Source: a virus (Duplodnaviria > Heunggongvirae > Uroviricota > Caudoviricetes). Taken from it: a stretch of DNA of 18,777 nt. The stretch lies in IMG/VR virus record IMGVR_UViG_3300025122_000007, positions 101,620 to 120,396 of that record. The stretch is one strand, 5' to 3'. Below are positions 1 to 15,792 of the stretch, piece by piece; within the stretch, counting starts at the first letter, position 1; each line of letters starts with the position of its first letter. The position numbers and the translations under genes were made by a program. Below the pieces are notes generated by a model. It made no database searches. It was not told the DNA's origin and saw only the letters and a list, made by a program, of their open reading frames with translations.

Positions 1-1572
1 GTTGGTGCCTCTGCCATTACAGGGTACGATCGCTTTGGTGTTCGAGGAGCAATTGGTGGGGCAGCCCTTGGTATCGGCCTTGGCTTTGGAATGGAGCTTG
101 GCAAGTTTGACCACGCAGAAGGAAATCTTGGAAAGACTCTTTGGAACGTAGGACTTGAGGGCATAGGAACATCTGCAGGAGCCTCCATGCTTGCATCGTC
201 GATGATGAAAGGGGCATTCTTCAGAGGGAAGCTGGGAAAGTACGGTACAGATGAGCAGCTTGTGGGCATGGCTGAGAGCCTAGGTCTTTCTCCTGAAATA
301 GGAAAGGCAGGTGGCATGTATGGGATGTTGGGGAGATCTTATAGGCAAAAGATTGAAACTGCACTCCCAGGTAAGCTTGGAGAGATTCTGGGAAGAGGAG
401 TGGAGGCTCAAACAGGATCTCCTCACATGTTGGATGCAGTTCTTCAGCATGGTTCCATTCAAGCGATTCCTCCTCAAGAGTTCTTTATTGCGAATGCAAG
501 AGATGTTATGTCTGGTGCTGCTGCGGGCTTTGTGGCATCAAGTCCCATTGCATTCGGTTCGTACCTGTTCTCTGGAAAAGACGATGCTTACAACTCGATC
601 GAAGGTCTTCCTCATAAGGGGATGGCTGGGGCCAGTCGTAGACAAAGAACCGACTTCGGGTCTGGTTATCAAGGAGAAGATCAGGTTGGAGCCTTTGGCG
701 GTATGGTGGGACTCGGAGCCACCCTCTATGCAGGTCGTGGCGCATACAGTGTTCGTGGAAACTTGATGATGGCTCGTGGCCACTGGCGTGGATACATGGA
801 CTTCTTCCATGGTACTCCGATTGCGAACAGAGCGAATATCTTGGCGGAAGGTCTTGTGCCCAATGCCAAGGACTGGGACAAGATCAAGCATCTGACTCCT
901 ACAGACCCTGCTCAGAAGGCTCTGTTCGCTCAAATTAGAGAGAAGGGAGAGAGGGTATTCTTCTCTGGTGAATCTTGGATTGCAAGAGCACATGCAAGTC
1001 AACAGGTAAAGCAGAACATTGGTCCTTTTATGGAAAACATGGGAAAGGCCAAAGGTATGCTGGGTTATTTCCACCCTTCTGTTCATGGAGGAAAAGCAGA
1101 GGGAGCGATATTCAAGTTCCGCCTTCCGATGGAAGAGATCGCTTCTCAGACTGGCCTCTTGGCTCAGTATGAAGCCATTACAGGGAGTGAAGGAGTTTCT
1201 AAGTTTCTCAAGGGATGGGGAGATGCATTTGCTTCTCATACAGGTCCTTCTATTGACCTATCAAGAGCAGGAGGGGTGGCTCCTGAACTCTTTAATGAGG
1301 TAATTCCGACAAGAGGAGGAGAGATTCTCTGGGGAGAGAAGGAGGTCCTAAGGGCTGCAGAAACCACAGGCTTTAAGCCCAATAAGGCAAAGGCTGCTGG
1401 AAGATTTGCTCTTGCAATGGCTCCAATAGTATTGGCAGGCTGGGGAGTGAACAAGATGTGGAATGCGATGCATACAGACGCGACTACAGACATGAAGAAG
1501 AAGATGTCCAGGAAGAATATTCAAGGACATGCTAATATGGATCCAAAGAGGCATATGAATATTTATGGCTAA
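1..1572 (+). CDS. 5'-truncated Gly-rich membrane-associated protein with central ADP-ribosyltransferase-like (KptA/Tpt1/Arr/PARP-like, HGT-motif) domain
   Basis: Frame 1 is open from base 1 (VGASAITGYDRFGVRGAIGGAALGIGLGFG precedes the track's Met at 91). ART-like motifs in order: FFHGT...NILAEGLVP (His codon 808-810), RVFFS...ARAHA, GAIFKFRLP, GGVAPELF (~1270-1293). Several Gly/Ala hydrophobic stretches and a C-terminal hydrophobic helix (1405-1449). Ends TAA. The CDS is secure; the ART call is motif-based. Confidence 0.75.
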   Translation, partial: VGASAITGYDRFGVRGAIGGAALGIGLGFGMELGKFDHAEGNLGKTLWNVGLEGIGTSAGASMLASSMMKGAFFRGKLGKYGTDEQLVGMAESLGLSPEIGKAGGMYGMLGRSYRQKIETALPGKLGEILGRGVEAQTGSPHMLDAVLQHGSIQAIPPQEFFIANARDVMSGAAAGFVASSPIAFGSYLFSGKDDAYNSIEGLPHKGMAGASRRQRTDFGSGYQGEDQVGAFGGMVGLGATLYAGRGAYSVRGNLMMARGHWRGYMDFFHGTPIANRANILAEGLVPNAKDWDKIKHLTPTDPAQKALFAQIREKGERVFFSGESWIARAHASQQVKQNIGPFMENMGKAKGMLGYFHPSVHGGKAEGAIFKFRLPMEEIASQTGLLAQYEAITGSEGVSKFLKGWGDAFASHTGPSIDLSRAGGVAPELFNEVIPTRGGEILWGEKEVLRAAETTGFKPNKAKAAGRFALAMAPIVLAGWGVNKMWNAMHTDATTDMKKKMSRKNIQGHANMDPKRHMNIYG

Positions 1573-1750
1573 AAAAGAAAACATTGGTCCTATCAAGGAC
1601 AGAAGGTATAGAGAGGCTACGGTGAATAGGAGGAGCGCCTTTACGAGGGTATTGTGCGACCCCACATTCGTACCCATCTTCATCAAGAGAACACTGGACA
1701 GCAAACCAGCGGAACATTTATTGGATCCGTTCGGTTTTAGGAATGCATAA
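1565..1750 (+). CDS. Small basic hypothetical protein (61 aa)
   Basis: Fills the gap exactly: 8-nt ATGGCTAA overlap with the upstream stop and TAATG overlap with the downstream start, which indicates translational coupling. Confidence 0.65.
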   Translation: MAKKENIGPIKDRRYREATVNRRSAFTRVLCDPTFVPIFIKRTLDSKPAEHLLDPFGFRNA

Positions 1751-2634
1751 TGATCCCACAAGAACTATGGACCGATAGGGCGCTCGAGTATGAGGGCGCA
1801 GGTAGAATGCAGAATGCAATGATGGCCCGTGCCACAGGCACAGGTCGGATTGGCCGGATGAGAGTTCGTCAAGGACTTTCGGCAGCTCGCAAAGGGTGGG
1901 CAACGATGGCAAACAAAGGTCAGGCCTGGGCGGCAGGAGAGTTCAGCGCCGGAGCTTGGCATGGAGCAGATGGTAAGAAGATCTCTCAACGAGCTCTGTG
2001 GAAATCTGATAGTCCTTTAGCAATGCTGCAAGAAGCGAAGTACACCAAGCCTGGTCAGCGGCGTGCCTTTGACAAATGGGGTAAGGGTGTAAATCCTGAG
2101 AAGTTCTTTGGAAGAGGAGCGGCTGGTCACCTGTCTAGGGGCGCTAGCAATACTGTCAAGAACACTGGCAGTGCCTTTGCGATGGGTGCACTCGGAGGCG
2201 GCTACGGGGCTCTTCTTGGGGGAATCTTTCTTCATGGCGGAGCCATGGGAATGTCAGGTAACAATGTAGCATCTCCATACGATGGATTCGTTCGAGGAGC
2301 TGTCCATACGGCAGCTGGATTCCTTGGATTCGATTTAGGTATGAGTGCAGGCGCGGCAGTCGGTGCGACATTAGGTTCGGTGCTTGGGCCCGCAGGTACC
2401 GTTATTGGTGCAGCAGTAGGCGGGCTCGCAGGCGCTATGGGCTTGGAAGCTGCATCAGATCTTCCTTGGAAGATTGCAGAGATGGGATATGCGGCGACCA
2501 AACCGTTCGCTTCTCCTTTCCTAGATTCACAAAGAGCTGCTACAATGAGACAGAGGTCTATGAATATGATAAACCAGTCTGCCATGAATGCCAGAAGTGC
2601 ATTGAGTATGGAAGCAGCTGGGTATCACCTATAA
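1750..2634 (+). CDS. Glycine-zipper membrane protein (294 aa), putative virion internal/ejection protein
   Basis: TAATG coupling. GxxxG zipper GMSAGAAVGATLGSVLGPAGTVIGAAVGGLAG, a second Gly-rich hydrophobic segment, and a C-terminal helix DSQRAATMRQRSMNMINQSAMNARSALSMEA. Function is inferred. Confidence 0.75.
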   Translation: MIPQELWTDRALEYEGAGRMQNAMMARATGTGRIGRMRVRQGLSAARKGWATMANKGQAWAAGEFSAGAWHGADGKKISQRALWKSDSPLAMLQEAKYTKPGQRRAFDKWGKGVNPEKFFGRGAAGHLSRGASNTVKNTGSAFAMGALGGGYGALLGGIFLHGGAMGMSGNNVASPYDGFVRGAVHTAAGFLGFDLGMSAGAAVGATLGSVLGPAGTVIGAAVGGLAGAMGLEAASDLPWKIAEMGYAATKPFASPFLDSQRAATMRQRSMNMINQSAMNARSALSMEAAGYHL

Positions 2635-2644
2635 GAGGTATAGT

Positions 2645-3016
2645 ATGTGGAATAAAATGACAGACGCACTCAACAGTGCAAACGATTGGATGAGAGCTCC
2701 AGAGAACAGGAACGTCGCTCTTGGTCTTGCTGGCGCGGCAGCTATTCCAGCTCTTTACATGGCCGGTCCTACCGGAACAGGCATGGCTGCTGGTGGTTAC
2801 TTTGGTGCACGCTCAGCGATGAGCGGCATGGCAAGGCCTCTTGCTGGGAAGATGGGAGCCACAATGCTCAAGGCGAGTGGAAGGGCTGGCTATATGCGTG
2901 GCGCACACTCTCTTGGTGTGTTTAGTGGCAATGCTCTAAGAGGTGGTATCGGTGGAGTCGCAGGAGCCGTCGGTGGAGGAATCGCTGGTGCAGCTCTCGG
3001 AGCCCTCTGGGATTAA
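2645..3016 (+). CDS. Small glycine-zipper membrane protein (123 aa), paralogue A
   Basis: GAGG SD at 2635-2638. Starts MWN, ends GGIAGAALGALWD. Hydrophobic Gly/Ala segments. Confidence 0.8.
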   Translation: MWNKMTDALNSANDWMRAPENRNVALGLAGAAAIPALYMAGPTGTGMAAGGYFGARSAMSGMARPLAGKMGATMLKASGRAGYMRGAHSLGVFSGNALRGGIGGVAGAVGGGIAGAALGALWD

Positions 3017-3017
3017 G

Positions 3018-3317
3018 ATGTGGAATACACTTAAAACTAATGCGGAGCCTATCATGCAGGCAGTGAAAGCAAACCCGATGAAGGCTCTTGGCTACAGTGC
3101 TGTGGGCCTTGGCTCTATCGCTGGTGTAACAGGGATAAATGCCTTGGCGTATGAGCATGCAGGTGGTTTCTGGGGCGCAGCAGGTACAGGAGGTATCGCT
3201 AGTGCAATCACCGGCTATGCCGGTGGTGGTGGTGTGCGAGGAGCTATCGCTGGAGGGATCGCAGGGGGACTCTTTACTGGGTTCACGGCAATGGGGTCTC
3301 ACGCTCTTTGGTACTAA
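3018..3317 (+). CDS. Small glycine-zipper membrane protein (99 aa), paralogue B
   Basis: ATG at 3018 lies 1 nt after the upstream TAA and is preferred over the track start 2943. Starts MWN and ends ALWY, mirroring paralogue A. Extensive GxxxG repeats. Confidence 0.8.
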   Translation: MWNTLKTNAEPIMQAVKANPMKALGYSAVGLGSIAGVTGINALAYEHAGGFWGAAGTGGIASAITGYAGGGGVRGAIAGGIAGGLFTGFTAMGSHALWY

Positions 3318-3809
3318 ATGGCCTATTGTAAGTTCAGAAAAATAAAGAGAAGGACAAAGGATATACTGGACCCCATGGGGACCCGACTTCCTTTGACAAA
3401 GAGGCGTAGTCGTAACAGAAAAGCTCGCCTCATGTCTCACCTCAAAAGACTAAGTTTTCAAAAGAAATCAGCAGCGATGAAGCGAATCTACAACTCTCCG
3501 GAGTACAAGGCCTGGCGCAGGTCTGTCTTTGTCAGAGATAACTTCGCTTGTATCATGTGTGGCAGCGACGGATACGTTGAGGGACATCATATCCTTAGAA
3601 AATGGGACTACCCTGCATTGGTCTTCAACATGCATAACGGAGTCACTCTTTGTGGCCCGTCTACCAACAAGAAGTCCTGCCATGGCAAGGTCACGGGAAA
3701 AGAATACAAGTACATCACTAAGATCATGAGTAAGATGGGTGATCTTCAGAGAGCTCAGTTCAGACACATCTTAAAAAAGAAAGGAGTGAAACATGGACCG
3801 AGAAAGTAA
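3318..3809 (+). CDS. HNH endonuclease (possibly terminase-associated, HK97 gp74-like, or a homing nuclease)
   Basis: WRRSVFVRDNFACIMCGS...EGHHI...NGVTLC...CH is a CxxC/HNH zinc-binding pattern. TAAATG junction upstream. Lies directly before terL. Confidence 0.85.
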   Translation: MAYCKFRKIKRRTKDILDPMGTRLPLTKRRSRNRKARLMSHLKRLSFQKKSAAMKRIYNSPEYKAWRRSVFVRDNFACIMCGSDGYVEGHHILRKWDYPALVFNMHNGVTLCGPSTNKKSCHGKVTGKEYKYITKIMSKMGDLQRAQFRHILKKKGVKHGPRK

Positions 3810-3846: not shown

Positions 3847-5889
3847 ATGGAAGGATTAACTCTTCACCCAGCATGCATCCGTTGTAAGAAGAAGAATACC
3901 CTCGAGAAGGATATTGTTCTGGAAGACGGGACCACGGTGTTCAAAGCCGGAGAGTTCCCCATCCAATGCAAAGGTATCCCTGCTGATTTCGGCCAGGTGG
4001 TAGACAAGGTCCTTGGTGACAAAAGAAGCTTCTTTGATAAGAATGAAGTTGAGATGCTTGAAGAAGGTCTCGACGCTACCAAGTGGGCAAAGAAGTGGTT
4101 GCTCGTTGATAAGGGTGGCTGGGAGCCGAGAGGTTGTACCCCACCCAACAAGCTTAAGTATGACCTTGATGACGATGCTGATATCTACCAAGAGATCATG
4201 CTCAAGTGTACTGCGAAGCGTAAGGTCTTCAGGATTGGACGACGTGGTGGAAAGACAGAGTCCATCTGTGTCAAGATGCTTCATCTCATTGACACCTGGC
4301 CTACGGGTCACTGTAAGATCCTTCTTGTCTGTCCTTTCAGATCACAGATCGATATTATCTACAAAAGACTCAATGAGTTGATCGCAGACTCTCCACGTCT
4401 GAAGAACCTCATCAAGCGCAAGGTCTCCAATCCATATCACGAGATCGAGTTTACCAATGGTTCCTACATCCGTGGCTTCTCAGCAGGCACCAACTCTGGT
4501 GCTAATGCTTCTTCCGTACGTGGACAGGGTGGTGACGTTATCGTTCTTGACGAGACGGACTACATGAACCCTGGAGATATCGACTCCATCGCAGCTATCC
4601 TGATGGACCACGAAGACACTCAGCTATGGGCCTCATCTACACCCACAGGTCGTAGGGACAAGTTCTATGAGTGGAGCTTCGACCCAGAATACAAGAACTT
4701 CCACTTCCCATCGATGGCGAACCCAAACTGGACCCACCGTATGGACCTTGAGTTCCGACGTACCCTTACCAAGGGCGGTTATATTCATGAGGTCCTTGCA
4801 GAGTTCGGAGACGACGATGCCGGAGTCTTCAGAAAGAAGGACATCGACTATGCCCTCAAGTGGGGCGGCAACTATGACTATGATGACAGCTACCATAGTC
4901 AGATCAATGCTCCAGGATGGGCCTATACGATCGGAGTGGACTGGAACCCGGTAAAGGGTACAGAGGTCATGGTCCTTGGTATTCATAGGTACACAAAAGA
5001 AGAGGCAGAGCTCGAAGGTGATTCTGCTCTTGAGGGAGAAGCATTCTTCAGGGTCGTTGACTCAAAGACCGTAGAAAGACAAGAGTTTACTGAAAGAGCG
5101 GCCAACCTGGAGATCATTCGTATGAATAGAAAGTGGGCACCGTTCGCTATCTATCTTGACTACGGTGGTGGTGGTGTCAATCACTTAGAGCAACTTAGAA
5201 TCTTCTCTGCGACAAAGCCCGATGGAACTGCTGACGGTAGAATCAAACACATCACCAAGAGCATCAACTTCTCTGGAAACATCGAAGCTTACGACCCTTG
5301 GTCCAAGAAGAAGACCAAGAAGCGTGCGAAGCAGATGATGATTGAAAATGCTCAGCGAAAGTTTGAGCAGCACAAGATTCAGTTGACGCAAGCAGATCCC
5401 ATTTTGACAAAGCAACTAGAGAACTATATTATCTCTCGTGTGACTCAGACCGGAATTCCGGTTTATGAAATGCAATCAGATGCGGTCGGAGACCACAAGC
5501 TTGATGCACTAGTTCTAGCATTGTTAGCAGTTCAGATGGAAGCGACCCAGTTCGGCAAGCCACGGCATGACGCAAAGATGCGTGTCGCCCCTGGTCTCGG
5601 ACAGGACATAGAGACTTCCGTAATAGAAGAACTTGGCAAGGCTGGAGTCAGCACCAAGCAACAGTTGAAGCTGGAGTTAGCCCCACAGCCTCGTGCTGTC
5701 AACGAAATGATCACACCGCGAACGGTGGTAAGGAGGAGTGACCATACTCATCGGTTCGCAAACGATAGAGATCATGAAAAGGACTGGGACAGAAGATTAT
5801 TAGCGCAACGCAAATCCAAGGTCAATAGAGGCAAGGGGTTTGGCAGGTTAAGAAATTCTCGAGGTCCACCAAGAAGATCGAACTTTTAA
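3847..5889 (+). CDS. terL: Terminase large subunit (ATPase plus RNase H-like nuclease)
   Basis: Walker A RIGRRGGKT, Walker B VIVLDE, motif III SSTPTG, nuclease aspartates in IGVDWN, IYLDYG and DHKLDA. Upstream of portal and capsid genes. Confidence 0.97.
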   Translation: MEGLTLHPACIRCKKKNTLEKDIVLEDGTTVFKAGEFPIQCKGIPADFGQVVDKVLGDKRSFFDKNEVEMLEEGLDATKWAKKWLLVDKGGWEPRGCTPPNKLKYDLDDDADIYQEIMLKCTAKRKVFRIGRRGGKTESICVKMLHLIDTWPTGHCKILLVCPFRSQIDIIYKRLNELIADSPRLKNLIKRKVSNPYHEIEFTNGSYIRGFSAGTNSGANASSVRGQGGDVIVLDETDYMNPGDIDSIAAILMDHEDTQLWASSTPTGRRDKFYEWSFDPEYKNFHFPSMANPNWTHRMDLEFRRTLTKGGYIHEVLAEFGDDDAGVFRKKDIDYALKWGGNYDYDDSYHSQINAPGWAYTIGVDWNPVKGTEVMVLGIHRYTKEEAELEGDSALEGEAFFRVVDSKTVERQEFTERAANLEIIRMNRKWAPFAIYLDYGGGGVNHLEQLRIFSATKPDGTADGRIKHITKSINFSGNIEAYDPWSKKKTKKRAKQMMIENAQRKFEQHKIQLTQADPILTKQLENYIISRVTQTGIPVYEMQSDAVGDHKLDALVLALLAVQMEATQFGKPRHDAKMRVAPGLGQDIETSVIEELGKAGVSTKQQLKLELAPQPRAVNEMITPRTVVRRSDHTHRFANDRDHEKDWDRRLLAQRKSKVNRGKGFGRLRNSRGPPRRSNF

Positions 5890-8854: not shown

Positions 8855-10945
8855 ATGGCTTTTTGGGACGATTGGTTCAAAAGTACAGACGCTAAGAAGC
8901 AGAGATCCAAGACGATTAGGATCTCTCGTGTCCGCACATTGATAGACCCTACACTCAATTACCCCCAAGCTCTGGGCGGTGGTCGTTGGTCAGGCGATGG
9001 CTTCAACGTACCTGAATACAACTTCCTTGAGATAGGTCAGGCAGAAGACACAGAGTCTTATGTAATGCAGGCTCATCTAAAGAAGCTTGCACTGATGTTT
9101 AAGGAGGGCTTCGACTTCGTTGGTCAAGATGAGCAGTCTGTCCAGTATATCCTGAAGAGGATCTCTCAAATAGAAAGGGCCTGCTGTCATTCATTCTGGA
9201 ATCTCCTTGTGGGTGTCGGTCATGACCTGATCAGATACTCCAACTCCTTCATGGTAAAGGTTCGCAAAGAATTCGATAACAAAGGCAGACCTGTCTCTGG
9301 AGGGCTGGTTCGAACAACTCCTGATGGAAAGAAACTTGAACCTATCGCTGCCTACTTCCGCCTCTCCCCTGAAACCGTAGAGATCAAAAGAAACAAGTCC
9401 AATGGAAAGGTAGAAAGATATCGTCAGGTAATGCCAGATGGATCCAAGAAGGAGTATCCAGCTCACGACGTCATTCACTTCCACTTCAATCGCAAAGGTC
9501 ACTTTGACGTGGGGACTCCTTCAATCATTCCAGTACTAGATGATATCCGTGCTCTTCGTAGAATCGAACAGAACGTAGAGATCCTGGTCTACCAACACCT
9601 CTTCCCGCTATACCAATACACAGTCGGCACAGAGGACGCTCCCGCACAGGTCTATACAGACGGAGAGTCTGAGATTGACCTTGTACGCAAAGAGATTGAG
9701 ATGCTCCCTGCAGAAGGAATGCTCGTAACTCCAGAGAGACATGAGATCAAGCCTGTCGGAGCAGAGGGCAGTGCTCTAAAGGTAGAGGGATACCTAGAGC
9801 ACTTCAAGAAAAGAATTATTGCTGGACTAGGAGTTTCCGCTGTAGACTTCGGTGACGGAAACACTGCCAACAGAGCTACGGCAGATAATATGTCAAGGCT
9901 CTTAATCGACAATGTTAAGTTTTATCAACAGGTTCTCTCTGATCAGATCAAGACGTTTGTGTTAGATGAACTGTTATTGGAAAGCACCTTTGATGGCGAC
10001 AAGCTATCTTTGGACAGAGCGGTACGTCACCGCTTCAATGAGATTGATACTGAACAACAGATCAAGGTAGATACGCATGCCTCCTTGATGTACCAGTCGA
10101 ATGTCTGGACACTGAATGAGGCAAGAGAACGAATGAACAGGAATCCTCTTTCTCCTGGTGACGAGAGTGATCTTCACTTAGAGAAGGTTGAGAAGAGCAT
10201 GCTTCAAGAGACCGCAAGGTTGGCTCCTTCTCCTGCAGCGGGGTCTTCTTCGGACGATCCTGCAAAGAAGGCTACGGCTACAAAGACCAGACCTTCTAAT
10301 CAGCATGGGACCAAGAGTGGCCCAGAGAAGAAGCGTAGCTTTGTGGACATGGGGCTAGGTGAACAGTTCGACGAGATCAGAGACGACGTAATCTCTTTGA
10401 TCAAGAGAGATGGAGATAGACTTAACCAAGGCTTGATTCGACAGACCATCCTTGCTGGAGCGACAGCTTCAAAACAAGAGTATAAGAGCAAGGTCTTTAA
10501 CGCGATGGTCAGAGGAGCTAGAGCTGGTGGTCTTTCTCATAGCGACGCAGAGCAATTGGTCGGTAGGCGTATGACGCCTATGATCACACGGTTCGATTCA
10601 GACATAGATCGTCTTTATAGACAGGTCAGTCATCTGATTGGAAATCTAGTTTCACAAAGAGGAGACAAGTCTCCGGAGGTGAGGCTGGCATTCAACTCAT
10701 TGAGGTACAGAACAAAGTTCATTGCTGCAACCGACATGCATCGTGCAGAGAACTTTGGAAAGGGTATCGCCATGAATGCTCTTGGGCACGAAGTCGCGAT
10801 CTCAACACAGCACAGTGATGAGGATGATATCTGTAAGGAACGCCACGGACAGGAAATACAGCTCTTGGCTTTGGGAATCGATGAGGTTCCTCCCTACCAT
10901 CCCATGTGCCAATGTGATCTCACCCCAAAGAGGACAGATGATTAA
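8855..10945 (+). CDS. Portal protein with C-terminal MuF (Mu gpF/SPP1 gp7-like) domain
   Basis: Portal-like features: DLIRYSNSFMVK, VIHFHFNR...GTPSIIPVLDDIRALRRIE, YLEHFKKRIIAGLGV, GNTANRATA, TLNEARERM. Positioned between terL and the protease/capsid genes. C-terminal FIAATDMHRAENFG and PPYHPMCQC match MuF motifs. Confidence 0.9.
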   Translation: MAFWDDWFKSTDAKKQRSKTIRISRVRTLIDPTLNYPQALGGGRWSGDGFNVPEYNFLEIGQAEDTESYVMQAHLKKLALMFKEGFDFVGQDEQSVQYILKRISQIERACCHSFWNLLVGVGHDLIRYSNSFMVKVRKEFDNKGRPVSGGLVRTTPDGKKLEPIAAYFRLSPETVEIKRNKSNGKVERYRQVMPDGSKKEYPAHDVIHFHFNRKGHFDVGTPSIIPVLDDIRALRRIEQNVEILVYQHLFPLYQYTVGTEDAPAQVYTDGESEIDLVRKEIEMLPAEGMLVTPERHEIKPVGAEGSALKVEGYLEHFKKRIIAGLGVSAVDFGDGNTANRATADNMSRLLIDNVKFYQQVLSDQIKTFVLDELLLESTFDGDKLSLDRAVRHRFNEIDTEQQIKVDTHASLMYQSNVWTLNEARERMNRNPLSPGDESDLHLEKVEKSMLQETARLAPSPAAGSSSDDPAKKATATKTRPSNQHGTKSGPEKKRSFVDMGLGEQFDEIRDDVISLIKRDGDRLNQGLIRQTILAGATASKQEYKSKVFNAMVRGARAGGLSHSDAEQLVGRRMTPMITRFDSDIDRLYRQVSHLIGNLVSQRGDKSPEVRLAFNSLRYRTKFIAATDMHRAENFGKGIAMNALGHEVAISTQHSDEDDICKERHGQEIQLLALGIDEVPPYHPMCQCDLTPKRTDD

Positions 10946-11360
10946 CGAAGTTCTTCGAGAGCAAAAGAGGTTGGCTCAGCAAAGATATCGGGAGAATCAC
11001 CCTGATAGAGTCAAGGCTCAGAAAGCGGCTTATTACGAAAAGAATAAAGAACGTGAACAAGAAAAACAGAAAAGATATCGAGATCTTACCAAAGAGGAAA
11101 GAAAGCTTTATGATCGTAAATATAGAGTTAAGAGTAAATATGGCCTTGATTGGGATAAGTATAAAGAATTGATTTCTTCTGGTTGTGAAATATGTGGATC
11201 TATGCCCGAAGAAACTATTATGCACCTTGATCACGATCACTTATCTGGTAAGATTCGGGGCCCTCTGTGTATCCATTGCAATACTGCTTTGGGATCATTC
11301 AAAGATGATATTGCTTTATTGAAAAAAGCAGTTCAGTACTTAGAGAAGCAAGATGCGTAA
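10938..11360 (+). CDS. Endonuclease VII-family (HNH-like) free-standing homing endonuclease
   Basis: KYGL...CEICGS...HLDHDH.SGKIRGPLCIHCNTALGSFKDD...AVQYL is the canonical EndoVII pattern, preceded by a basic helical N-terminus. The start at 10938 (8-nt overlap with the portal stop) is preferred to the track start 10776. AT-rich relative to its neighbours. Confidence 0.9.
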   Translation: MINEVLREQKRLAQQRYRENHPDRVKAQKAAYYEKNKEREQEKQKRYRDLTKEERKLYDRKYRVKSKYGLDWDKYKELISSGCEICGSMPEETIMHLDHDHLSGKIRGPLCIHCNTALGSFKDDIALLKKAVQYLEKQDA

Positions 11361-11391
11361 GCGCCTGAGTAGGAAATTGGAGAAAAAGAGA

Positions 11392-13209
11392 ATGGATAAG
11401 TTTATTAGGTTCAGAGACTATATCGAGATCAAGCCAGTCAAGCTCACTGATGGTAGGCTCGCGCAGAAGTTTGCAGACAACCACCTTGGAGCAGGACAGT
11501 CCTTGGAGGTCCTTGCAGACCTGACATTCGCAGGACTGAAGACAAAGAACCGCGCTCTCTACCTGCCAGACGAAGTCGCCAGAGGAGTGAAGTCTTGGCT
11601 CAAGCCATACGGAAAGCCAATCCAGCTACACCATGAGGATCACTTAGATCCCATTGGCAGGATCATCGACGCCAGATACATCAACACCATGGACCAGGTC
11701 ATGCACGCCAACGACTCTGTAAGGGACTACGTAAAGCTTAATGACTTTTGGAAGGTCAAGGACAAGGCTGCGGTCTTTGGAGAGATGCTAAGACTTTCCA
11801 AGGATGAGACCTATCAAGGTCTTGGCCGTATCCGTGGACACCTGAGAATCACTGATAGAGATGCAATTGAGAAATTGGCAGACGGAAGATACCTTACTGG
11901 TTCTGCTGGCTTCAGAGCGGCACATGCCTGGTGTTCTACCTGCATGATCAACGATGAACCGACCGACTGGGCAGACGATGGTCCTTGCGACCACTCTCCT
12001 GGTGAAGACTACAAGGGTCTTGAGTGTGTACTTATTCCTGGTGGAATCGCCTACGATGAGTACTCTTTCGTCAACCACCCAGCTCTCGTTCATTCTCAGG
12101 TCGTAGAGCTCGGAACTGCAGGGTTTGCGGACAAGCGCGTTGATATCAAGATGGATGACAAGGAAATCCCTAAAGGATTCTATGAGCTTTTTGTTCGTAA
12201 TAAGGATGAAAATGGGGATGTGTCTGTTATTAATATAGAGGACGAGGAAGACAATAATATCCTCGACTTCCAAACAAGATTTACCGACATGCTGATGCTT
12301 CTAGACAAGAAGACAGAATCGGCAGAGGATATCGATCCGACAATTAAGGATCCAGAACAGAGGGAGACAAATATGCTAAGCCTCATGAACATTACCAAGG
12401 ACACAGCGACTAACTATGCAACGCTGGTCGAACACCTACCAGAGGACGCAAAGCTGACTGATGAGAAGTTAGCTGAGCTAGATGACTCCGCCTTCATTGG
12501 CGTAGGTAGAACATTCCCAGTGCCAGACGCTGCTCACGCAGAAGCCGTGAGAAAGGTCCTTGACCAGGTTGAGGAGGGAGAGGGGCTAAAGACCCTGCTT
12601 CTTTCTGAGCTTGACAAGGCTGAGAAGAAGTTTGATGATTCTCAGGGAAATACAGATACTTCCGATGACGCAGGAGTTATTGGAGAGGGAGATGGGGAAA
12701 CTGACCCCGTCACCAAGCTACAGGATGAGATTGAAGATCTAAAGGTTAAGCTTTCTGAGAAAGATCAGATGGTTGAGCTACTTCGTAGAAACCTCACCTC
12801 CGTAGAAGACGAGCTTAACCGAGCCAACGAGGCAGCTCTTGAGTTTAACAAGAGAGCTCATGATCTCGTGGCCGAGAAGATCGTTGACAAGAAGGTCGCT
12901 CTCGGAGAGACTGTTGAAGACAGAGATACCGTGATTAAGGATTTTGCATCCAGAACATGGGAGTCACTGTCTGACACGCTAAAGGATCTGGAAGGAAGAA
13001 CCTCCACTCCTGGTCTTGCCAGAGACACTGTAGAAGATGCAATCGTCGACGATCCGACGAACGAGACTGAGGCTGACCTCACCAAGTTCGCAGCAATCGT
13101 TGAACAATACAAGGATCATAAGCTCTATAAGGGCGCAGCCTGGGCCGAAATGTGGCTCCAGAACGTCAAGCATCAGGGACTTTTCCCAGCTGACGCAAAG
13201 ATCCAATAA
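11392..13209 (+). CDS. Prohead (capsid maturation) protease fused to a C-terminal scaffold/coiled-coil region
   Basis: His motif KPIQLHHEDHLDPIGR, Ser motif YLTGSAGF and DEYSFVNHPA, as in HK97-type prohead proteases. Acidic linkers and a heptad-rich C-terminus. Start 11392 has GGAG at 11379-11382; 11353 is an in-frame alternative. Confidence 0.88.
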   Translation: MDKFIRFRDYIEIKPVKLTDGRLAQKFADNHLGAGQSLEVLADLTFAGLKTKNRALYLPDEVARGVKSWLKPYGKPIQLHHEDHLDPIGRIIDARYINTMDQVMHANDSVRDYVKLNDFWKVKDKAAVFGEMLRLSKDETYQGLGRIRGHLRITDRDAIEKLADGRYLTGSAGFRAAHAWCSTCMINDEPTDWADDGPCDHSPGEDYKGLECVLIPGGIAYDEYSFVNHPALVHSQVVELGTAGFADKRVDIKMDDKEIPKGFYELFVRNKDENGDVSVINIEDEEDNNILDFQTRFTDMLMLLDKKTESAEDIDPTIKDPEQRETNMLSLMNITKDTATNYATLVEHLPEDAKLTDEKLAELDDSAFIGVGRTFPVPDAAHAEAVRKVLDQVEEGEGLKTLLLSELDKAEKKFDDSQGNTDTSDDAGVIGEGDGETDPVTKLQDEIEDLKVKLSEKDQMVELLRRNLTSVEDELNRANEAALEFNKRAHDLVAEKIVDKKVALGETVEDRDTVIKDFASRTWESLSDTLKDLEGRTSTPGLARDTVEDAIVDDPTNETEADLTKFAAIVEQYKDHKLYKGAAWAEMWLQNVKHQGLFPADAKIQ

Positions 13210-13226
13210 TTAGGAGAATCTAAGAA

Positions 13227-14519
13227 ATGGTTAGACTCTATACACCAATCCACAGAAGGTATTCAGACCAGGGAATTATTGTCCCGAACGTTGAGCTATC
13301 AGAGGGCATTCGTCCCTTTATCGGCACAGAGGTAGCCCCGTACCTTCCAGTACAGCAGCTAGAAGAGTATCATGGCGATCACTACTCTATCCTAACGGGT
13401 AAGGCAGTTTCCATGGACAGCTTGGGCTTCGTAACCCTGGCAGGACTCAGACTACAGATGGACGCAGTCCGTGACGACCCAGAGTATGCAAACGGTGCAG
13501 CCGGCAGCCTTGACTTCGGTGTTGCAGACGCTGATGGAATCATCGCAGGCGGCGCACTTACCCTGTATGACGCAACTGACGTTGCTCAGGCAGTTTGGGA
13601 TGCGCGTGGCGCAGCAGCCGTGGCTAACGAGCCTGTCATCTGGGCATTCCTCAGAGACACGCTAGGCAACTGTCCAATGGACTTCGGAGCAGGCGACAAC
13701 ACGACTGCATTCAATCCAGCAGGCGTTGTTGACCCGTCCGGCACAATCGTCAACACTGACGTTTACAACTTCGAGTTCGTAGACTCAGTCACCGTCGGTT
13801 ATCCACAGGGTGTCGCACCTTACTCATACTACAGAAGCTCTCGTAACTTGACGGCAGCAACTGCAGCAGCAGTAGGTCTGACCAGACCTTTCGGTGCCAA
13901 CGTGAACTTCTCTGTCTTCAGCCCAACCGGTCTGAGGCAGCACAACTACAACAAGCAGGGTCGTGTTGCGATCCTTTGTGACTATGCATGTGAGTACCCT
14001 TGGGTCACCACAGCAGCTAACGTTCTCATTGAGGGCATGGCAGTATTCCAGGGAGCTCTTCAGGCTGACGCTGGTGTAGGTCCTCGCCCTGGTGACTTTG
14101 TCACCATCAATGCAGCTTCCAACCTAGTCCTAGAAGGACGTGTTGGTGGCAACGCAAACAACAATGGTGGATGGGAGCAGGCTCCAGTAGTCGAGGGTCT
14201 TGATCTTGGAAACGGTGACGCAGGTCTCGTAGCCAACCAGAGAGCTCTTGAGAATAGGCTGGGACGCTTCGCTGGCTACCGCATGGGACAGCTACTAAGA
14301 GTACAGGATGCTCATGTTGATACCGCATATCTGACGCGAGTTAGGTCTAGGTTTGAAGACAACGGCGGATTCGCCGGAGCAACGTCCGACTTTACGGACA
14401 TTGACAGACTGCCAGGTACGGCGACGGGCGGACAGCCTTGGAACGTATGGGCAGCAGGACGCACAGACGCGGCTCCAGCAGAGACTGGAAGCGTAATCGT
14501 TAACTTGATTTCTCGCTAA
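13227..14519 (+). CDS. Putative head decoration/cement protein (430 aa)
   Basis: Lies between protease and MCP. AGGAG SD, Gly/Ala/Asp-rich beta composition and strongly biased codon usage. The role is inferred from position. Confidence 0.65.
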   Translation: MVRLYTPIHRRYSDQGIIVPNVELSEGIRPFIGTEVAPYLPVQQLEEYHGDHYSILTGKAVSMDSLGFVTLAGLRLQMDAVRDDPEYANGAAGSLDFGVADADGIIAGGALTLYDATDVAQAVWDARGAAAVANEPVIWAFLRDTLGNCPMDFGAGDNTTAFNPAGVVDPSGTIVNTDVYNFEFVDSVTVGYPQGVAPYSYYRSSRNLTAATAAAVGLTRPFGANVNFSVFSPTGLRQHNYNKQGRVAILCDYACEYPWVTTAANVLIEGMAVFQGALQADAGVGPRPGDFVTINAASNLVLEGRVGGNANNNGGWEQAPVVEGLDLGNGDAGLVANQRALENRLGRFAGYRMGQLLRVQDAHVDTAYLTRVRSRFEDNGGFAGATSDFTDIDRLPGTATGGQPWNVWAAGRTDAAPAETGSVIVNLISR

Positions 14520-14547: not shown

Positions 14548-15792
14548 ATGCCAAAGGGTAAGAGCTTTAAGGATGATTTCAGAGGCTACGAATATATGTG
14601 GAGGCATCAGGGTAAGTGCCTTGATGGTGACAAGCTTTCTTTCGAGGATGCATTGGCCACACCAGAAGCCGGATACTTTATTCCTCGTGTAATCACAAAC
14701 GCAATTCAAGAAGCAGTGGAGCCGCTGCTAATCGGTCCTAGCCTTCTAACTAGGCTACAGTTCCAGCCTGGAACGTTCATCAACCTTCCGATCATGGGAG
14801 CACTTGACGGTGACTTCGATATGGGTGAGGAAGAAGAATACCAGGAGATCAGGGTCACGTTAGGCCCAGGAACGGCAATCACCAGCGTCGGAAAGACCGG
14901 TGTAGCCGTTAAGTTCTCTGAGGAAATTCTTCGTTACTCGTCATTCGACGTAGTCACGATGCACACCAGTGCAGCAGGCAAGGCGCTAGCCAGATATAAG
15001 GAGCGCAAAATCTTTGAGCTTCTTCTCAATGAGGGCACTGTCACTCACGACAACGCCGCTCCTGCGACTGCGCAGTTCGGTACAACTACCGGACGTAACT
15101 TGGTCGGAGCAGCTAACGGCTCTGTTAGAATGGAGGACCTCTTCGAGGCTTACTCTGTACTAGTGGCCAATGGTTTCATTCCCAACCTGCTTATCGTTCA
15201 CCCACTCACCTGGCTGATGTTTGTACAGGACCCAGTCCTGAGAGCATTCGCACTACAGAATGGTGGTGGAGCGATGTTCCAGGGATGGACAGGCAATCCT
15301 GGCAACATGGACTTCCCGTCTCAGTTTGGCGGACAGGGCGCTGCAGGCGGTAACTATCTGGTTCCGTCTCACGCTGGTCAGCACGCTGGTGCACAGGATG
15401 TTCCATCCGCACTGACGAACTACTCTCAGAACCTAACCAGCGCTCCACAGCTACCTGGTTACTTCGGGTTCCCAATGAGTGTTCTAGTCAGCCCGTTCAT
15501 GGCATTCAACACCGCAAACAACACGACTGACATCATCATGGCGTCAGCTGACGAGCTTGGTTACTTCATTGAAGACCATGGCTTGGTGGTTGAGGACTGG
15601 ACCGACCCAAGGAACGATATCCTTAAGGTCAAGATGAAGGAACGTTACAGCTTGGCTGTTAAGAATGAGGGTCTTGGTATCGCCGTACTAAGAAACGTTG
15701 AGGTTACACCTAACGAGATCGTTCTGCCTGCTCAGGCTCACATTGATGTTGGTGGTGCTATTGACGCGATCAACCGTGGCGTAGCGATCTAA
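14548..15792 (+). CDS. Major capsid protein (HK97 fold)
   Basis: Patterns AGYFIPRVITNAIQE, KTGVAVKFSEEILRYSSFDVV...AGKALARYKERKIF and PNLLIVHPLTW. Size 414 aa. Tandem SDs upstream and a double stop TAATAA. Confidence 0.95.
   Translation: MPKGKSFKDDFRGYEYMWRHQGKCLDGDKLSFEDALATPEAGYFIPRVITNAIQEAVEPLLIGPSLLTRLQFQPGTFINLPIMGALDGDFDMGEEEEYQEIRVTLGPGTAITSVGKTGVAVKFSEEILRYSSFDVVTMHTSAAGKALARYKERKIFELLLNEGTVTHDNAAPATAQFGTTTGRNLVGAANGSVRMEDLFEAYSVLVANGFIPNLLIVHPLTWLMFVQDPVLRAFALQNGGGAMFQGWTGNPGNMDFPSQFGGQGAAGGNYLVPSHAGQHAGAQDVPSALTNYSQNLTSAPQLPGYFGFPMSVLVSPFMAFNTANNTTDIIMASADELGYFIEDHGLVVEDWTDPRNDILKVKMKERYSLAVKNEGLGIAVLRNVEVTPNEIVLPAQAHIDVGGAIDAINRGVAI

Follow-up and report, generated by a model that had tools for sequence, protein, structure and literature searches.

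The stretch of viral DNA analysed here (the window) comprises the final 18.8 kb, or 18,777 nucleotides (nt), of the 120,396-bp IMG/VR virus record IMGVR_UViG_3300025122_000007, which has a CheckV completeness of 56%. It opens within the gene for a giant protein of 2,085 amino acids (aa), P0002, and our attention is on the last cassette of that protein, a module of about 205 residues. It is suggested here that this module is an ADP-ribosyltransferase (ART) cassette, dependent on nicotinamide adenine dinucleotide (NAD+), of a virion-delivered polyvalent protein, and that it has an active site of the form H-[Y/F]-D. We put the probability of this reading, taken as a whole, at roughly 0.55.

A rare family with ordered motifs

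The module, searched as a domain on its own, has no sequence match in Pfam, PHROGs or, by phmmer, the PDB. An exhaustive phmmer scan of 1.84 billion representative proteins recovered nine clusters including that of the query itself (E 1e-147 to 6e-15), and all nine members lie within proteins of 698-2,418 aa that bear the same spacer sequence. Further searches, by word index, in IMG/VR (which gave P0006) and in JGI metagenomes (which gave P0011), returned known members only, and by tblastn the module is absent from 50,697 cultured phage records. A megablast search with the first 6 kb of the window likewise found no further member.

A preliminary description of this DNA, made from its letters, had singled out four motifs, and all four are present in the plus frame: FFHGTPIANRANILAEGLVP (nt 802-861), RVFFSGESWIARAHA (nt 952-996), GAIFKFRLP (nt 1102-1128) and GGVAPELF (nt 1270-1293). 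They recur in identical order in eight other clusters defined at 50% identity. The nine-member alignment (A2) contains 21 invariant columns at 35-46% pairwise identity, and because the same ordered motifs accompany these invariant columns in eight other clusters, the pattern is more than chance. Among the invariant residues are His1832-Gly1833-Thr1834, Asn1838, Lys1877, His1893-Ala1894, Asn1908, Tyr1918, Gln1945, Gln1951 and Asp1981. Three members carry insertions of 45-85 aa past the GLVPN turn.

The predicted fold

AlphaFold2, run on A2, gave a model with a predicted local distance difference test score (pLDDT) of 82.2 and a predicted template modelling score of 0.80, the five models ranging in pLDDT from 77 to 82. 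The order of elements along the chain is helix, beta1, helix, helical insert, beta2, helix, loop region, beta3, beta4, a variable insert of low confidence, beta5 and beta6. As judged from chain order, the number and succession of strands fit the ART core, a split beta-sheet with the arrangement 4-5-2/1-3-6. In Foldseek, all 50 of the matches listed from the PDB are ARTs, the best with E 2e-4.

A second look at these matches with VIA-align gave Z scores of 9.3-9.7 for TreTu and TreX (119-121 residues aligned out of chains of 128-130; root-mean-square deviation, rmsd, 3.6-3.9) and of 7.3-8.0 for the NAD lobes of Tpt1 and KptA (80-93 residues aligned, rmsd 2.4-3.1, 14-21% identity), with PltA, LT, pertussis S1 and Scabin at Z 7-8. 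A VIA-align search of 48,161 representative chains, made independently of Foldseek, placed only 78 at Z>=2, and nearly all of its best 50 rows belong to the ART superfamily. The list includes TreX, PltA, Scabin, KptA, LT, pertussis toxin, CARDS, pierisin and DarT, as well as PARP1/2/10/15/16, diphtheria toxin, Arr, exotoxin A, cholix, IcmQ and the TASOR pseudo-PARP. Among predicted structures (AFDB clusters, ESM Atlas and BFVD) the matches were DarT, pertussis-like, scabin/pierisin-like and DUF952 proteins together with ART-like proteins of jumbo phages, the last being found in BFVD for Vibrio phage nt-1, Bacillus phage G, phiRSL1 and PaBG.

Profile searches, as sequence evidence that does not depend on the model, point in the same direction. 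The A2 profile matches Tpt1/KptA chains in the PDB at E 0.0017-0.07 over the YHGT-helix-GLxP stretch. For KptA, an alignment of 89 sequences was assembled from the E. coli K-12 kptA gene together with its homologues, and local hhalign of the family against it returned a probability of 92%. Once family-specific inserts had been removed this became 94.6% and collinear over beta1-helix-beta2-helix-beta3, a soft result in that the trimming was guided by the AlphaFold2 secondary structure. Language-model features gave a weak pointer to PARP, Tox-ART-HYD1 and Arr clusters (0.87-0.89), which we treat as a lead only. Three outcomes of these searches were set aside. The best profile matches in the PDB, designer PPR proteins, are a repeat artefact of the EKGIVPN string (2-5 bits per repeat); a match to 8bfk, a phiKp24 tail protein entry, was discounted as noise (E 0.3); and global hhalign against full-length KptA gave an alignment made unreliable by the inserts. 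On the model, the fold searches and the profile matches to the Tpt1/KptA NAD lobe, we conclude that the module is predicted to have an ART fold, and the earlier proposal of a His-initiated ART fold is borne out to that extent.

Candidate active-site residues

In ARTs the three residues of the catalytic triad are found where strand 1 ends, midway along strand 2 and where strand 5 begins (PMC11606950), and a candidate can be named for each of these places in the module (Table 1). At the first lies His1832 of the HGT motif, encoded by the CAT codon at nt 808-810 that the preliminary description had called His808. In TRPT1 the HGT motif binds the adenosine ribose and the nicotinamide, and diphtheria-toxin-like ARTs and several of the PARPs possess it too (PMC10415124); in hhalign the HGT of the module aligns with that of KptA. 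The second place falls to residue 1882, which the same alignment pairs with the second His of the KptA string VHLS and which is Tyr in four family members, Phe in four and Ser in one, and thus aromatic in eight out of nine.

For the third place we propose Asp1981, in P-x-I-D-L-S, as the candidate catalytic acid. When TreX residues 9..136 are aligned to model residues 15..204, R15 falls on model residue 21 (His1832) and E102 on model residue 170 (Asp1981), the TreX triad positions being those of PMC11606950. Alignment of PARP1 854..1008 to model 13..191 brings H862 to model residue 21 and E988 to about model residue 171. The Glu at the end of GGVAPELF, which had been put forward as the third motif, does not hold this place: it varies within the family (E/D/G/Q/S) and lies in the turn between the last strands. 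Our assignment of the site as H-[Y/F]-D, with His1832, Phe1882 (Tyr in 4/9) and Asp1981, is made from the model and with moderate confidence. The rifampin ART Arr is also of the H-Y-D kind. For ARTs in polyvalent proteins, Iyer et al. (2017, PMC5512222) describe an H-Y-D configuration.

Two features that had been named as hallmarks, the HGT motif and the ARAHA His, are both invariant in all nine members. PARP1 and diphtheria toxin have a second Tyr at the place of the ARAHA His, and the preliminary description was accurate in calling this a substitution. The residue is not, however, the counterpart of the second His in the H-H-V motif of Tpt1, to which Phe1882 aligns, and the argument drawn from it for a phosphate-end substrate is therefore left without specific support. 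As a local pattern only, the ART-PolyVal domain of Roseovarius phage RPP1 has LARDYA where the module has ARAHA. The low-confidence insert between beta4 and beta5 varies by insertions and deletions among family members, holds the invariant Gln1945 and Gln1951, and in the model occupies the place of the acceptor-recognition loop.

Points that weigh against the reading

Several observations count against what is proposed here. The AlphaFold2 model was built on just nine sequences, its pLDDT falls below 50 at model residues 149-164 (and only there), Z scores of 7-10 are middling in absolute terms, and no Pfam ART model matches the module even at E<=10. No canonical Glu is conserved in the family, and the aromatic residue of strand 2 is Phe in this protein and Ser in one relative. 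The placement of Asp1981 derives from the order of strands and from arithmetic on aligned ranges, which assumes few gaps and has a precision of about +/-1-2 residues, and a naive pattern match to the KptA string NGVWL puts Ile1980, not Asp1981, at the catalytic-equivalent position. The Gly-rich segment ahead of the module is too short and too weakly hydrophobic for a confident transmembrane call, and in this 56%-complete record no prohead protease family that could free the cassettes was detected. With regard to the fold, we nevertheless hold the call to be strong despite the middling scores, because the matches are almost exclusively ARTs and coincide with the sequence motif.

Cassette architecture of the giant protein

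The flagged open reading frame (ORF) is open at the 5' end of the window and represents the C-terminal quarter of P0002. When upstream DNA is added, it is completed as one uninterrupted ORF (L004:11935-18189) whose start lies 4,686 nt upstream of the window. The only Pfam match in P0002 is to staphylococcal nuclease (SNase; residues 542-661, E 7e-15). At the N-terminus there is a FDIETTG motif that is DEDD-exonuclease-like, its profile support being weak. The protein is divided into cassettes by a conserved spacer, about 34-37 aa long and present in four copies, whose consensus is roughly FSGKDDxYNTIEGLxHxGxAxxxRRxxTDFGSGY; the ART-fold module is the last of these cassettes.

The placement of the module is fixed. 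In all nine family members the HGT motif comes 47-58 aa past the FGSG end of the spacer, and a hydrophobic helix of 19 aa (Kyte-Doolittle 1.42-1.96) follows about 190-275 aa past the HGT, the distance being about 190-200 aa in those members whose module has no inserts. Past this helix, most members that extend further have another spacer. The flanking segments had been described as Gly-rich and hydrophobic, with a hydrophobic helix at the C-terminus; the helix and the Gly-rich stretch are there as described, but the latter is only weakly hydrophobic. The name glycine-zipper protein does not hold, since neither P0001 (the part of P0002 encoded in the window) nor P0002 itself has a match to the Pfam Gly-zipper families (PF13488/PF13441); GxxxG-type strings are present after the spacers of P0002.

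SNase is present in five of the eight family proteins scanned (all except P0010), and two relatives have weak kinase-like matches instead, one above and one below the Pfam cut-off. The place of the module relative to the SNase cassette differs between relatives, and the module is therefore a cassette that is shuffled independently. The spacer is also alike at the DNA level: window positions 567-680 resemble G000:C1:101457-101570 (70% over 114 nt) and 99145-99173 (90% over 29 nt). The cassettes that follow spacers 1 and 3 open with paralogous Gly-rich segments. Together, the similarity of spacer DNA and these paralogous cassette starts suggest internal duplication of spacer-plus-linker units within P0002.

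In the cassette preceding the module (approximately L004:15892-16470; P0002 residues ~1320-1512) a string of the form H-E-x-x-E-x(1-2)-H is conserved, and the motif GPEHY occurs as well. P0002 has both in common with P0004, in which they are N-terminal. This cassette has no Pfam match at E<=10, and from its motifs it could be peptidase-like or otherwise metal-dependent. The spacer was considered as a candidate prohead-protease site, its [ST]-I-E-G string resembling known cleavage motifs; the prohead-protease families S77 and S78 were not found anywhere in the 56%-complete record.

Proposed mode of action

We take the module to be a virion-delivered transferase because it belongs to a giant multi-enzyme gene that lies on the late/structural strand, directly upstream of the packaging and head genes. 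P0002 would be made late, together with the structural proteins, and then packaged in the virion, so that it would enter the host along with the phage DNA. The module would there bind NAD+ and move ADP-ribose onto a host macromolecule, and the trailing hydrophobic helix may hold it at a membrane. Catalysis, the role of Asp1981, packaging and delivery, tethering to the membrane and the target are all steps that we infer. As to the target, the fold neighbours span ARTs that modify proteins (TreX and the cholera/pertussis type), nucleic acids (KptA, Scabin, pierisin and DarT) and small molecules (Arr). The isoelectric point (pI) of the module, above 9.3 in seven of the nine members, is uninformative on this matter because every cassette of P0002 is likewise basic.

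Relationship to known ADP-ribosyltransferases

Among the domains of phage polyvalent proteins that modify macromolecules, ARTs occur most often, and it is the polyvalent proteins as such for which packaging and injection are predicted (PMC5512222, PMC9503650). The principle of an ART in a polyvalent or packaged phage protein is already published. P0002 itself combines SNase, a weak DEDD-like N-terminus and the ART-fold module in one polypeptide. As regards the H-Y-[EDQ] clade, the His of the strand-1 H-G-[ST] motif is found in all nine members, the strand-2 Tyr in four, and immediately before predicted beta5 there is an invariant Asp, whose match to the catalytic position is good to about +/-1-2 residues. 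The closest parallel in setting is ART-PolyVal (PF18760; Tox-ART-HYD2; PMC5512222), which is also an ART fold inside a giant multi-enzyme phage protein encoded with late/structural genes. Its H in strand 1, Y in strand 2 and D in strand 5 match the site proposed for the module, and the surroundings of strand 2 are similar (GLFFT..LARDYA in RPP1, RVFFS..IARAHA in the module). The module family departs from ART-PolyVal in its two inserts (helical or loop), in the invariant His that stands where the helix Tyr would be, in the trailing hydrophobic helix, and in its setting among cassettes delimited by spacers. Membership of ART-PolyVal was considered and rejected: PF18760 does not match P0002 at E<=10, though it does match the control, the RPP1 virion RNA polymerase (vRNAP), and the family profile finds nothing at the ART region of RPP1 vRNAP (hhalign probability 5%).

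At the level of sequence, the best relative among solved structures is the NAD lobe of Tpt1/KptA/TRPT1 (PF01885, H-H-h clade), which shares the HGT-helix-GLxP motif with the module. The RNA-binding lobe and the Arg-His-Arg-Arg tetrad of Tpt1 are missing in the module, the second His of Tpt1 is replaced by Phe/Tyr, and where Tpt1 has a Val in strand 5 the module has its invariant Asp at or next to that position (motif as in PMC10415124). The stretch between spacer and HGT, where no N-terminal RNA lobe is present, is only 47-58 aa long and mostly Gly-rich, and PF01885 does not match the module at E<=10. With neither the RNA lobe, nor a PF01885 match, nor the H-H-V motif, the module is not a Tpt1 orthologue.

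The top structural scores belong to TreX and TreTu, toxins of Rhs proteins delivered by the type VI secretion system, which have a compact ART core in common with the module. They are the C-terminal cargo of a large protein delivered into bacterial cells, and the module too is a C-terminal cassette. However, TreX/TreTu and the cholera/pertussis-type enzymes have an Arg-Ser-ExE site (PMC11606950), their identity with the module is 13-14%, and there is no match at the level of sequence. The module is not of the R-S-E type, which is marked by Arg in strand 1, S-T-S in strand 2 and [QE]-x-E before strand 5, because its strand 1 has an invariant His and no ExE/QxE is conserved before beta5, where P-x-I-D-L-S is found. 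T4 Alt, which the preliminary description had brought in for comparison, is a functional analogue: it travels in the phage head, enters the host with the injected DNA, and serves as the experimental prototype for packaged ARTs (PMC5512222, PMC9503650). It differs in belonging to the R-S-E Alt/VIP2 clade and in being a separate protein, outside polyvalent proteins, with a capsid-targeting sequence; the packaging of P0002 is only presumed.

Against this background, what is new in the module is its rare sequence family, invisible to the domain libraries searched, its placement between spacer and hydrophobic helix, and, with moderate confidence and on the basis of the model, the H-[Y/F]-D site, unlike the canonical triads and accompanied by an extra invariant His.

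Alternative explanations

One alternative makes the module a pseudo-enzyme with the ART fold, or a domain for binding: it would bind NAD+, a nucleotide or nucleic acid, or have a structural or membrane role, and would not transfer ADP-ribose. The lack of a conserved Glu and the Phe or Ser at the strand-2 position would suit such a domain, as would the hydrophobic helix that always trails the module, and non-catalytic ART-like folds do occur among the structural matches (IcmQ at Z 4.2, the TASOR pseudo-PARP at Z 3.8 and a CNFy domain at Z 4.2-4.4). However, ten polar residues (His1832, Thr1834, Lys1877, His1893, Asp1981, two Asn, Tyr and two Gln) have been kept invariant across the divergence of the family, which is typical of an active site, the HGT motif for NAD contact is fully intact, and the cassettes that reside with the module are enzymes (SNase and kinase-like). 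We consider this unlikely, though it is to be taken seriously.

Rather unlikely, too, is a KptA/Tpt1-like enzyme acting on the phosphate ends of nucleic acids, which would ADP-ribosylate 5'- or 3'-phosphates or remove 2'-phosphates from the DNA or RNA of host or phage. The SNase and exonuclease cassettes that share its polypeptide might supply such ends. Tpt1/KptA NAD lobes are the nearest solved relatives in sequence and give the tightest superpositions (rmsd 2.4, 21% identity); Tpt1 enzymes ADP-ribosylate 5'-phosphorylated nucleic acids (PMC10415124, PMC12678800); and the nucleic-acid ARTs Scabin, pierisin, DarT and ScARP rank high in the structure searches. The basic character of the module might be read in the same way, but it is shared by all cassettes. 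Moreover, the RNA lobe and its tetrad are absent, as is a PF01885 match, and the site, with Phe/Tyr for the second His and an invariant Asp near strand 5, resembles H-Y-[EDQ] and not H-H-h.

A more elaborate scheme, and a distinctly improbable one, would have the ART cassette held at the membrane as part of a spacer-delimited ejection protein, with the hydrophobic brackets around each enzyme cassette placing all cassettes on one face of the host membrane. There its substrate would not be a protein: it would ADP-ribosylate the nucleic-acid ends that the SNase and exonuclease cassettes, delivered along with it, leave behind, and so block host DNA or RNA repair.

There is little to recommend the idea of an ART-fold NAD+ glycohydrolase that alters host NAD+ or signals derived from ADP-ribose early in infection and modifies no macromolecule. 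NADases with this fold are known in the H-Y-[EDQ] and R-S-E clades (PMC9503650), and the fold and HGT motif of the module are compatible with such an activity. But the module shows no specific similarity to known NADase families, depletion of NAD+ is normally an abortive-infection tactic of the host, and the variable beta4-beta5 insert stands where transferases have the loop that recognises the acceptor. Finally, that the motifs resemble those of ARTs by chance and that the domain is unrelated to them is scarcely credible, for although the sequence libraries are silent and AlphaFold from the single sequence reaches a pLDDT of only 35, independent structure searches and profile searches converge on ARTs with almost nothing else listed.

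Gene, features and neighbourhood

The features of the window that bear on the ART-fold module, and the genes that follow it, are collected in Table 1. The stop codon of the P0002 gene is TAA, so that the amber suppressor tRNA of the phage is irrelevant to it and amber read-through is excluded. The minus-strand ORF at 538..1239 is a shadow of the overlapping conserved plus frame. The statement that the protein stands next to the head module is upheld by the HNH endonuclease, TerL, portal and major capsid protein genes that follow on the same strand; the full order after P0002 is three Gly-rich small proteins, HNH endonuclease, TerL, portal, endonuclease VII and major capsid protein.

Table 1. 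Positions in the window of the P0002 reading frame, of sites and segments in its last cassette, and of downstream genes
Feature	Position (nt)	Strand	Remarks
ORF (P0001)	1..1572	+	C-terminal 523 aa of 2,085-aa polyvalent protein P0002; TAA stop at 1570-1572
Spacer copy 4	568..669	+	Immediately precedes the ART-fold cassette
Gly-rich, weakly hydrophobic segment VGAFGGMVGLGATLY	685..729	+	Best 15-aa Kyte-Doolittle mean 1.35; 0.5-2.0 in relatives
Predicted ART-fold module	748..1368	+	P0002 residues ~1812-2018; model residues 1-207
His1832-Gly1833-Thr1834, putative NAD-binding HGT motif	808..816	+	End of beta1 (model residues 16-24); invariant 9/9
beta2 core Phe1882-Phe-Ser1884	958..966	+	Strand 2 is V-[F/Y]-x-[S/T]; Ser/Thr conserved
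His1893-Ala1894 (ARAHA)	991..996	+	Invariant; helix after beta2
Asp1981 in P-x-I-D-L-S, candidate acid	1255..1257	+	Invariant; immediately before predicted beta5 (model residues 171-174)
Hydrophobic helix AAGRFALAMAPIVLAGWGV	1393..1449	+	19 aa; Kyte-Doolittle mean 1.46
Basic C-terminal tail	1450..1569	+	40 aa; pI 10.1
HNH endonuclease	3318-3809	+	
TerL	3847-5889	+	
Portal protein	8855-10945	+	
Major capsid protein	14548-15792	+	

The three small proteins after the giant gene (window 1750-3317; 294, 123 and ~99 aa) are consecutive and rich in Gly, Ala and Met. The 294-aa protein has a Pfam Gly-zipper match below the cut-off (E 5e-4), part of it matches PHROG 1047 'tail associated lysin' (E 1e-4), and its homologues sit after the giant gene in contigs L010 and L006. 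On the other side, a conserved ORF of some 280-330 aa adjoins the beginning of the giant gene in three loci (L004:10943-11935, L006:3688-4584 and L010:9164-9997; E 1e-23 to 1e-24 at 26-30% identity). No Pfam family matches this ORF, and its Atlas neighbours are unnamed viral clusters. The unit of three genes, namely this upstream ORF, the giant protein and the Gly-rich protein, is conserved in two other contigs.

The endonuclease VII ORF (window 10776-11360, Pfam E 6e-18) shares 170 nt with the 3' end of the portal gene as listed, and its real start is probably a later codon, as the domain begins at residue 117. For the two large ORFs between the portal and major capsid protein genes (window 11353-14519; 618 and 430 aa), Pfam gives no family and PHROGs only weak matches.

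A NADAR-domain protein (169 aa, PF08719, E 3e-25) is encoded at G000:C1:77829-78269 on the minus strand (L012), about 24 kb upstream of the window. NADARs reverse the ADP-ribosylation of guanine, and T4-like phages use orphan NADARs against DarTG1 (PMC11543638, PMC11825919). It is more likely that this protein serves as an anti-DarT counter-defence than as a partner of the ART-fold module. No NADAR was found in the one relative record searched (41% complete), and there is no macro or ARH partner gene in the present, 56%-complete record.

Implications

Phage-delivered ARTs are a recognised route to the takeover or disarming of the host, of which few have been characterised beyond T4 Alt. An inactive module would mean that virion proteins have turned the ART fold to another use, in binding or at a membrane. 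An active one would add a new catalytic flavour, and possibly a new class of target, to ADP-ribosylation between phage and host, and would also provide a way into the function of the giant phage proteins built with these spacers.

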